Source of the DNA: an uncultured Candidatus Saccharibacteria bacterium
GTDB lineage: Bacteria; Patescibacteriota; Saccharimonadia; CAILAD01; BJGX01
Reading direction: 5' to 3'
DNA: 64,000 bases
Assembly: GCA_964481235.1 (NCBI GenBank)
Contig: CAYZYH010000003.1
Coordinates: 12,341-76,340, forward strand
Shown: positions 61,613-62,500 of the stretch, piece by piece
Numbering within the stretch: position 1 is the stretch's first letter
Layout: each line of letters begins with the position of its first letter
Made by a program: the position numbers and the translations under genes
Notes under the pieces: model-generated
Told to the model about the DNA's origin: nothing
What the model saw: the letters and a program-made list of their open reading frames with translations, nothing else
Database searches by the model: none

Positions 61613-61699
61613 ATTTTCAAATTCTATTGACACGCCCACGTGTAATCTGTTAAACTGGTTTTTATCTTTTGTACCTTGTAATATGCTGTTTTACTTTAA

Positions 61700-62160
61700 G
61701 ACAGCTACAGCTGTGATAAATTTATCTTGGCTGCAGCTGCCTTAAATGTACAGCTTCAACTATTCAAGAACTTCTGTCACTACCTAAAAAATCGTGTAGG
61801 GCGCACGTACATAGGTTGTGACAGAACAGTCCTGAAAGCGTTGCGTGGTTTTGTGACCGCTTACCACCAACGCTTTCAGGCAATATCTCATAAAAGACAA
61901 TCATCTTCGGTGCTGCCAACACCAGCCGGCGGGCGTACTAAACGTGTAGTTGATTGTTAAATGAGAAGCAGCGGACAGATAGCTCAAAGTATGAATAGAG
62001 CAGCCGTCTTAGACGGAAGGTCAAGAGGTCGAATCTCCTGTCTGCACGAACCTCTTCTAGTTCAAAACCCTACCCAGGGTGGAGAAGAAGAGGCTACCCG
62101 CTTCGGGTTGGTTAGTGAAGCCCACTGGTCTTTAGCTAACCAACCTGTTGCGGGACCAAG
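61700..62160 (+). ncRNA. unclassified GC-rich structured RNA region (5' part of the murA-tig noncoding island)
   Basis: GC clearly above the local background; perfect 13-bp hairpin cctgaaagcgttg/caacgctttcagg (61831..61880) enclosing a second stem gtggt/accac; 9-bp stem ttctgtcac/gtgacagaa; repeated CAGCT(R)CAGCTG palindromes; only Arg-rich ORFs with odd composition. Confidence 0.4.
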
Positions 62161-62232
62161 GTCCCGTAGCTCAGTTGTAAGAGTACTCGATTGAAAGTCG
62201 AGGGGTCGCTGGATCGATACCAGCCGGGACCA
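62160..62232 (+). tRNA. atypical tRNA-like cloverleaf, anticodon GAA (Phe)
   Basis: Perfect 7-bp acceptor GGTCCCG/CGGGACC, 5-bp anticodon stem CTCGA/TCGAG with loop TTGAAAG, 5-bp T-stem GCTGG/CCAGC. The T-loop is ATCGATA (A at position 54) and no CCA is encoded. A canonical tRNA-Phe already exists at 23677..23752. Confidence 0.5.
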
Positions 62233-62263
62233 CAAAGAGTCTTGGGCTATTACCTAAACTCAT

Positions 62264-62457
62264 GGGGATGCTACAGCGGTTGATGAAGAAACCAACGGAC
62301 AATGTCCGCGGCCCAACTTCGATCGTGTCGGTTGTAGAGCTAGAGACATGGTTTGTCCCGTTAACAGCTGCAGCTGTTAAAAGGCCAGGGGATTCCGCGG
62401 ATCTCTCTGGAAGTACAAATCATTATCTGGTCGCAGGTTCGAATCCTGCCATCCTCC
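62264..62457 (+). ncRNA. 194-nt RNA with a tRNA-like domain (acceptor GGGGATG/CATCCTC plus T-arm GCAGG-TTCGAAT-CCTGC) ending at a terminator; family unresolved
   Basis: 5' and 3' ends pair as a 7-bp acceptor-like stem directly adjacent to a canonical T-arm; internal perfect 22-nt palindrome GTTAACAGCTGCAGCTGTTAAC and two CCGCGG sites; strong terminator 12 nt downstream. Confidence 0.45.
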
Positions 62458-62468
62458 TCGCCCTTCAG

Positions 62469-62500
62469 CCCCAATCTGTAAAATTACAGATTGGGGCTTT
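62469..62500 (+). terminator. rho-independent terminator (11-bp stem)
   Basis: ccccaatctgt-aaaatt-acagattgggg followed by CTTTTT. Confidence 0.8.

Follow-up and report, generated by a model that had tools for sequence, protein, structure and literature searches.

Transfer RNA (tRNA) shapes occur in several bacterial RNAs that do not decode. The tRNA-like domain of transfer-messenger RNA (tmRNA; RF00023 and its permuted variants) has an acceptor stem with alanine identity (G3:U70, often with A73) and lacks an anticodon. The GOLLD (RF01998) and ROOL RNAs are structured non-coding RNAs of about 0.6-1 kb with a variable 5' part, and they are linked to tRNA or pseudo-tRNA genes, which in some GOLLD representatives lie inside the RNA itself (PMC12286853, PMC6582537); GOLLD is also found in tRNA clusters of Actinobacteria (PMC6582537). 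Judged by likeness of form, these two systems are the nearest analogues of an RNA island identified in a stretch of 64,000 nucleotides (nt), here called the window, from an uncultured Candidatus Saccharibacteria bacterium (contig CAYZYH010000003.1, positions 12,341 to 76,340; all positions below are those of the window). The island occupies the interval between murA (60308-61612, + strand) and a 70-residue open reading frame (ORF) followed by the trigger factor gene tig (starting at 62853). The reading that we prefer, and hold with about even confidence, is that one Saccharibacteria subclade has here a self-contained gene, the composite stable RNA of which is probably cut into tRNA mimics that do not decode.

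A single transcription unit is predicted at 61627-62503 on the + strand, as are all island features described below. It begins with a near-consensus sigma-70-type promoter at 61627-61656 (TTGACA, an 18-nt spacer and TAAACT, with a TG element) and closes with a strong intrinsic terminator at 62467-62503, composed of a 14-bp stem (hairpin 62467-62498) and a T run; the primary transcript predicted between these two signals would measure about 840 nt. The unit has a GC content of about 48-50%, compared with about 38% in the flanks. Over 61800-62500 the GC fraction is 0.47-0.54, against 0.31-0.40 in the flanking sequence and 0.395 in the whole window. The minimum free energy (MFE) of the 846-nt RNA is -336.5 kcal/mol, whereas dinucleotide shuffles reach -251 +/- 8 (z = -10.8), and the - strand folds more weakly than the + strand (-317). 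An earlier reading of the letters alone (the sequence-only reading) had proposed a GC-rich, ORF-poor, highly structured island between murA and tig that ends in a terminator, and both proposals agree with these results. It had also taken the ORFs of the island for artefacts. The three in question (77, 77 and 98 residues) have no Pfam match, and in L085, a relative with 94% identity, indels of 1-4 nt disrupt their frames. Its statement that this is the only long non-coding stretch did not hold, as a second ORF-poor stretch of 1.1 kb lies at 23270-24382. Canonical tRNA genes (Val, Gly, Phe, Cys and Leu) are clustered there in ordinary fashion on both strands, all with encoded CCA and separated by unexplained spacers of 200-330 nt.

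Relative loci were fetched through homologues of the trigger factor (Tig), apart from L001, the one Saccharibacteria locus from a MurA scan in which Actinobacteria made up most of the results, and the sample is made up of tig-linked loci only. The trigger factor has hundreds of homologues, and those named by source are labelled Saccharibacteria or Saccharimonadia. In related Saccharibacteria lineages, the window included, a total of 12 independent syntenic islands have been identified upstream of tig: those of the window, L085, L088, L178, L086, L091, L092, L001, L097, L171, L176 and the reduced L090. They are 0.35-1.1 kb long and have a GC content of 48-57% in flanks of 38-48%, with the exception of L090 (0.40 against 0.39). 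Nine islands possess a promoter of the form TTGAC(A/C/T)-17/18-TAnnnT, the -35 hexamer of which starts 39-41 nt before a conserved leader motif. A terminator-like hairpin is present near the 3' end of all 12, with a clear T run in most of them and a weak or absent one in L171, L176 and L090. The islands cannot be aligned by BLAST except for the closest pairs, and a MAFFT alignment of four of them was unreliable beyond the closest pair. The features common to them are (i) the promoter; (ii) the leader; (iii) two paired regions, P1 and P2; and (iv) tRNA-shaped modules, mostly without encoded CCA. In more distant Saccharibacteria (Tig identity of 55% or less) nothing comparable was found upstream of tig. 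The sequence-only reading had named lack of conservation in relatives as a sign of decayed mobile DNA; the island is conserved in relatives. On sequence grounds, the existence of a real, strand-specific, independently bounded gene for a structured RNA, conserved in the clade, is directly supported.

Some related loci begin at or close to this region. The first letter of L172 lies within an island module, about 155 nt upstream of tig; L178 begins right at the leader, and L180 starts about 155 nt upstream of tig with no island sequence visible in it. This suggests that the tRNA-like repeats break assemblies and that the island is possibly under-represented in metagenome-assembled genomes (MAGs).

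The first of the tRNA-shaped modules, module A (61971-62046), has the acceptor stem GCGGACA/UGUCUGC with G3:U70 and A73, and no encoded CCA. It contains no anticodon, since the corresponding arm is a 5-bp stem capped by UUA, and its T arm is degenerate. Its match to the Rfam tRNA model (61973-62044, under permissive filters) scores 17.2 bits, compared with a gathering score of 29. The sequence-only reading had missed the G3:U70 pair, which belongs to this first module; the 3'-terminal one does not have it. Alanyl-tRNA synthetase (AlaRS) classically recognises its tRNA by G3:U70. In module A it is present in 12 of the 12 islands, across eight distinct acceptor stems in which pairs 2:71, 4:69, 5:68, 6:67 and 7:66 switch among G-C, C-G, A-U, U-A and U.G. 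The preservation of a wobble pair at 3:70 despite such turnover of the acceptor stem points to selection. The loop of the "anticodon" arm is far less constant, with 3-6 nt or a long extension in its place (UUA in the window against AAA in L085), and the 3' trailers of module A in the other islands are mostly not CCA, that of L178 (ACCA) being an exception.

A module with G3:U70, A73 and no anticodon recalls the tRNA-like domain of tmRNA, and the last module of the island, module 3 (62264-62457), has a tmRNA-like topology, ending in an acceptor stem and a T arm with a large insert. The island could accordingly be read as a highly divergent or rearranged tmRNA, or as another housekeeping RNA that Rfam does not recognise in this phylum. 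Divergent RNAs of Patescibacteria, including group I introns, are known to escape Rfam models (PMC13011429, 2026), which calls for caution with every negative Rfam result reported here. However, the two tmRNA-like traits are divided between two modules: module 3 has G2:U71 instead of G3:U70, while module A, which does have G3:U70, forms a closed cloverleaf and is internal to a longer transcript. Module A closes its anticodon arm in a hairpin, which leaves no messenger domain attached there; messenger-like domain, pseudoknots and tag frame are all missing, and in most islands the D arm is a true stem, unlike in tmRNA. Tag frames were sought in module 3 and in L001. The only open frame of module 3 is disrupted by a 1-nt indel relative to L085, the module 3 homologue of L178 is too short to hold it, and a candidate frame in L001 is absent from L097, so that no tag reading frame is conserved among the relatives, in line with the sequence-only reading. 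Moreover, some close relatives lack the island at this locus, and its content varies far more than would suit an essential RNA. Taken as a divergent tmRNA or housekeeping RNA, the island would therefore be a highly improbable case.

The database searches lead in the same direction. Rfam 15 was applied at gathering score to the whole window and 13 related loci, and with permissive thresholds to the island of the window (E <= 10) and to L001 (E <= 5). At gathering score the window contains nine tRNAs, one of them inside the island, where Rfam and ARAGORN together report just one tRNA-Phe-like gene and one sub-threshold tRNA match. The tmRNA clan, including the alpha-, beta-, cyano- and mt-tmRNA models, has no match in the window even at E <= 10, and ARAGORN predicts no tmRNA in the window, in 87 related loci or in the further loci scanned. 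The models of RNase P, signal recognition particle (SRP) RNA and 6S RNA gave no match in the island of the window (E <= 10) or in L001 (E <= 5), and none at gathering score in L002, L011, L037, L085, L086, L088, L090-L093, L097 and L141. GOLLD, ROOL and OLE were likewise not matched in the window (E <= 10) or in L001 (E <= 5), and the other permissive matches are noise (miRNA models and small RNAs driven by the terminator). The island RNA is therefore outside every Rfam family except tRNA. The idea of a cluster of tmRNA, RNase P, SRP or 6S RNAs, one of two offered by the sequence-only reading, finds no support in these results, and the lack of the island at tig in L174 and L179 would be unexpected for an essential RNA, unless it has been relocated. 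The other, a larger novel RNA, agrees with an element that matches nothing in Rfam but tRNA and is conserved in relatives with compensatory substitutions.

Several individual candidates were rejected. The motifs ACAGAAC and AGUCC at 61821-61833 resemble CR-V and CR-I of RNase P RNA, but they lie side by side in the wrong order, and L088 lacks them. A group I intron inserted in a tRNA received no RF00028 match, and modules A and P (the second module, described below) are uninterrupted; in module 3 the inserts total about 120 nt, form two simple arms and contain no D-arm exon sequence. The YrlA model reached 17.9 bits against a gathering score of 69, in the T-arm region, and no TROVE/Ro gene was found among the neighbours of the island.

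Evidence that the fold is maintained comes from the comparison with L085. Among 285 predicted pairs, 98.4% of the 569 cells compared remain paired. Seven pairs have changed on both sides and still pair, compared with 0-1 in controls slid by 1-3 columns, and a further 20 changes are one-sided and pair-preserving (of G-C/G.U type). Five of the seven double changes are located in the two inner helices of module 3, where for example UUAACAGCUG/CAGCUGUUAA is replaced by UCGACUACUG/CAGUGGUUGA. Between L001 and L097, 16-17 double compensatory changes were counted. Read from sequence, such changes show a structure under selection.

The 5' domain begins with the leader motif, CUUUUGUACCU in the window (61666-61676, about +4 to +14 of the transcript). 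Its general form, UUUUGUACCU, is conserved across islands about 40 nt 3' of the -35 hexamer and hardly varies among 11 islands which otherwise resist alignment. Long-range pairing of the leader with the rest of the RNA has been examined: the energies are no better than those of shuffled leaders, and no consistent partner emerged. A role in protein binding, or as an element like boxA, is a guess. Only about 6-9 of 12 positions agree with a boxA consensus, and the identification with boxA remains speculation. Downstream, P1 (GCUGU at 61685-61689 with ACAGC at 61750-61754, read from the sequences) encloses P2, a long hairpin of 14 bp (61700-61713/61728-61741) with the base GACAGC/GCUGCC and a conserved A.C mismatch. 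The last pair of P1 varies by island (U-A, U.G or C-G), and the upper stem of P2 covaries between islands (UACAGCUG, UUCA, UACAGUUG, GAUAACCAG); alternative hairpins are also possible for the P1 and P2 strands. Of the three CAGCTG-type palindromes listed in the sequence-only reading, the first two were located correctly and turn out to be the two arms of one hairpin, P2, while the third is placed at 62361-62380, inside module 3, and not at 62347-62368.

Two further hairpins, both noted in that reading and recovered in the MFE fold, are found only in the closest relatives of the window: one of 9 bp (61772-61780/61818-61826) and one of 13 bp with a nested inner stem (61831-61843/61868-61880). 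Each has one double compensatory change relative to L085. The 5' domain also includes the hairpin GGUG-CUGCCAA-CACC (61909-61923), followed by GCCGGCGGGC (element to 61934). Its 7-nt loop has the sequence form of a tRNA-Gly(GCC) anticodon loop, the loop of the window's own tRNA-Gly being UUGCCAA. In 10 of the 12 islands, a hairpin whose loop reads (Y)UGCCAA or GCCAA is found upstream of module A, and its stems covary (GGUG/CACC, GCUG/CGGC, GGUACG/CGUACC). Since hairpins of this type are common by chance (34 in 61.6 kb), only the conserved position has been counted as evidence.

Module A is separated from the second module by a spacer of two long hairpins in the MFE fold, at 62051-62093 and 62097-62154, the latter containing CCCGCUUCGGGU. 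Relative to L085 these hairpins have undergone only changes of G-C/G.U type, and a CCCG(G)CUUCGGGU motif in the spacer recurs in L088, L001 and L097. The second module, module P (62160-62233), is a tRNA-Phe(GAA)-like cloverleaf with the acceptor stem GGUCCCG/CGGGACC, recognised by Rfam (tRNA, 61.1 bits, 62160-62232) and called tRNA-Phe by ARAGORN. It has a regular UUGAAAG anticodon loop, the T loop AUCGAUA, a D loop without GG and no encoded CCA. Just 5' of it (62151-62166), CGGGACC repeats the 3' acceptor strand and complements GGUCCCG with AA in between; a similar CCAC...GUGG is located upstream in L088, and the repeat may mean alternative pairing or chance.

Module 3 is an oversized tRNA-like frame in the MFE fold, with the acceptor stem GGGGAUG/CAUCCUC (G2:U71), a canonical T arm (62433-62449) and, where the D and anticodon arms would be, two long arms. 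The Rfam tRNA model does not detect it, and a shorter homologue is present in L178. Its 3' strand and trailer (62450-62462) read CAUCCUCCUCGCC, and positions of about 545-560 in L178 read CCCCUCCUCGAUC; this CCUCC-rich string resembles the anti-Shine-Dalgarno end of 16S rRNA. The sequence-only reading was thus right that tRNA-shaped modules exist in the island, although there are three of them and not two.

In a further reading the island is an accessory tRNA operon with a long leader, the members of which would still take part in translation as spare, suppressor or frameshifting tRNAs. Several modules exceed the Rfam tRNA threshold (46-75 bits, within an overall range of 17-75 bits for island modules), a GAA anticodon with A73 is preserved in four lineages, a very tRNA-like gene with the anticodon UCA is found in L091 (75 bits), and some modules have 8-nt anticodon loops like those of frameshift suppressors. 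However, homologues of module P with the acceptor strand GGUCCYG have unrelated loops in other islands (GCC, AUC, CAC, GAA or 8 nt), often with C33 instead of U33, and are called Phe, Gly, Asp or Val by ARAGORN. Other module loops are of 3-6 nt, and ARAGORN calls in the islands include "anticodons" of 2 and 4 nt. No anticodon is conserved across homologues. CCA is encoded in none of the three window modules, compared with eight of the eight canonical tRNA genes of the window, and most modules elsewhere lack it too, the second module of L086 (G-CCA) being an exception. The window also has a separate canonical tRNA-Phe (23677-23752) and a canonical tRNA-Gly, and the conserved 5' domain and module 3 find no explanation in a tRNA operon, which we consider decidedly unlikely. 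Because the anticodon loops drift while the acceptor pairs are kept, it is the tRNA shape and the acceptor stem that are conserved, and not decoding.

Individual modules of the relatives are worth noting in their own right. The last gene of the L091 island (L091:3861-3936; Rfam tRNA, 75 bits) has the anticodon UCA and G73 without CCA and is called tRNA-SeC by ARAGORN; from its sequence it looks Trp-like and could read UGA, which would matter for genetic-code calls in this lineage. Modules L086:4857-4933 and L176:3342-3417 have 8-nt anticodon loops, given by ARAGORN as the 4-base anticodons cgcg and caca, and resemble frameshift-suppressor tRNAs in form; the L176 module also has G3:U70.

The comparison with GOLLD and ROOL leads to another explanation, in which the island is a large ornate, possibly self-assembling RNA that accompanies an accessory tRNA array; its structured domains would do the work, and the tRNA-like modules would be passengers or linkers. 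RNAs of this type, 600-800 nt long, often occur near tRNA islands, a tRNA is sometimes placed in the GOLLD linker (PMC12286853), and the GOLLD of Mycobacterium tRNA clusters contains an internal pseudo-tRNA (PMC6582537). The palindromic hairpins of the island could, in a structural model, mediate RNA-RNA contacts. Actinobacteria are the usual known hosts of Saccharibacteria, and the adjoining murA is itself closest to Actinobacteria. In contrast to GOLLD and ROOL, the island gives no covariance-model match, is chromosomal and syntenic beside tig, where the loci examined show neither phage nor mobile-element surroundings, and has tRNA-like modules as its most conserved theme instead of an occasional passenger; in L171 only about 100 nt are left of the 5' domain. 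A blastn search of two islands against 50,697 phage genomes returned only generic tRNA similarity over 70-90 nt, and a phage origin was rejected. The 15-mer GGTGCTGCCAACACC gave only scattered single matches in viral contigs, which were taken as chance. A membership in this group of RNAs is, in our estimate, rather doubtful.

Two other kinds of RNA have been considered. Non-proteinogenic tRNAs, such as the staphylococcal tRNA-Gly for cell-wall cross-bridges, also come from additional tRNA-like genes in which the D and T loops deviate, and the island modules would, like them, be charged for use off the ribosome; however, the non-proteinogenic tRNAs have an ordinary anticodon loop, end in CCA and stand alone as genes, and no Fem-type transferase gene was seen beside the island. 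In MALAT1/mascRNA, NEAT1/menRNA and YrlA a tRNA-shaped module likewise forms part of a larger non-coding RNA, and RNase P and tRNA enzymes recognise it. MALAT1 and NEAT1 are eukaryotic, and YrlA has a Ro-binding stem and adjoins rsr, neither of which is present at the island. The island differs from all three in having several modules per transcript, one of them with an aminoacylation identity element. A full-text literature search retrieved no paper naming both Saccharibacteria and "tRNA-like".

The surroundings of the island are variable. In the gap between island and tig, the 70-residue ORF (62568-62780), with a promoter-like site at 62506-62535 and a terminator at 62782-62809, has no Pfam match; its position is taken by an ORF of 88 residues in L085, one of 144 residues in L088, two ORFs in L001 and L097, and none in L086 and L091. 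A promoter-like site of its own precedes tig at 62815-62843. On the other side, MurA finds its best genomic match in a Saccharibacteria MAG (65% identity), and beyond a few Patescibacteria MAGs the closest relatives are from Actinobacteria (55-59% identity). In related loci murA is found on different sides of tRNA-Leu(UAG) or is absent, which suggests its transfer from Actinobacteria into a variable region. In L179 (2000-2215) a second copy of the tRNA-Leu(UAG) 3' end, cccctccgcggtaccagc, is located about 110 nt downstream and followed by a WhiB-like gene; the duplication is suggestive of a scar left when an element integrated at this tRNA.

This setting could also make the island a decaying relic without a function of its own, left by an old tRNA cluster or by a mobile element beside tRNA-Leu(UAG). 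The region from tRNA-Leu(UAG) to tig is a hotspot of gene gain, where murA, greA-like and WhiB-like genes come and go, the duplicated tRNA-Leu end in L179 is typical of integration, and the island is missing in L174 and L179 and strongly reduced in L090. Decay is difficult to reconcile with helices maintained by double compensatory substitutions, with a G3:U70 pair preserved through many acceptor-stem changes, with the conservation of promoter, leader and terminator, or with the retention of a non-coding block of 0.7-1.1 kb in dense genomes (ORFs of at least 100 residues cover about 88% of the window). A relic therefore appears very unlikely.

In the preferred reading, a composite gene for tRNA mimics, the transcript would consist of the leader, P1/P2, the hairpin mimicking a tRNA-Gly(GCC) loop and then the three tRNA-shaped modules, separated by long hairpins. 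As the modules keep the acceptor and T-arm shape known to RNase P and the 3'-end enzymes, they are probably punctuation marks for cleavage. In such a model, cleavage of the precursor at the modules would release a 5'-domain RNA of about 310 nt together with a number of small tRNA mimics. Such mimics would not be ordinary decoding tRNAs, with their drifting loops or closed hairpins and, in several cases, aberrant D or T loops. Module A, once CCA had been added, would by its sequence probably be charged by AlaRS, giving a mimic that carries alanine and has no anticodon. The products may act as amino-acid donors outside translation, as decoys or sponges for factors that bind or cleave tRNA, or as a scaffold or part of a larger assembly. 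The fullest version of this proposal, in which the subclade makes from one transcript both an alanine-charged anticodon-less mimic and other non-decoding decoys, is tentative and on the unlikely side.

A number of points weigh against the composite-gene reading. We infer transcription, processing and aminoacylation alike from sequence, and modules without encoded CCA require the CCA-adding enzyme. The window's module A, with its degenerate T arm and additional bases ahead of the D stem, may be a poor substrate of RNase P or AlaRS. The covariation comes mainly from a few close pairs among the 12 islands, most of which are too divergent to align, and the structure examined was derived from one of the sequences compared. 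The content of the island turns over fast, the number and type of modules differing by lineage, and the length of the 5' domain varies between about 100 nt (in L171) and 800 nt. Finally, L174 and L179, close relatives inside the clade, have no island at the tig locus, with relocation elsewhere being possible. Rapid turnover and absence at the locus also fit a dispensable or partly decaying element. Together, turnover and absence in some relatives suggest an accessory and not a core function.

Were the composite-gene reading right, the island would represent a new class of large structured RNA, in a phylum from which no lineage-specific structured RNA was found described, and a new form of tRNA mimicry, with several mimics per transcript, one of them with a strict alanine pair and no anticodon. 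Should the fullest version of the mechanism also be true, module A would amount to a "tmRNA head without a message" that stands on its own, with a role off the ribosome, a role similar to ribosome rescue, or one as a decoy against tRNA-targeting factors; it would be a new class of bacterial tRNA mimic, and the 5' domain a new large structured RNA. With its 76 nt, the module offers a simple test system for charging by AlaRS and cleavage by RNase P. The island also bears on the frequent linkage of large ornate RNAs such as GOLLD and ROOL to tRNA genes. Its modules are being annotated by standard tools as genes for tRNA-Phe, His, Gly, Asp, Val, Arg, SeC or Pyl, and the tRNA inventories and genetic-code inferences for these genomes are distorted as a result. 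The genomes of Saccharibacteria and other Patescibacteria are tiny and dense, and a non-coding block under structural selection in such a genome is unlikely to be idle.

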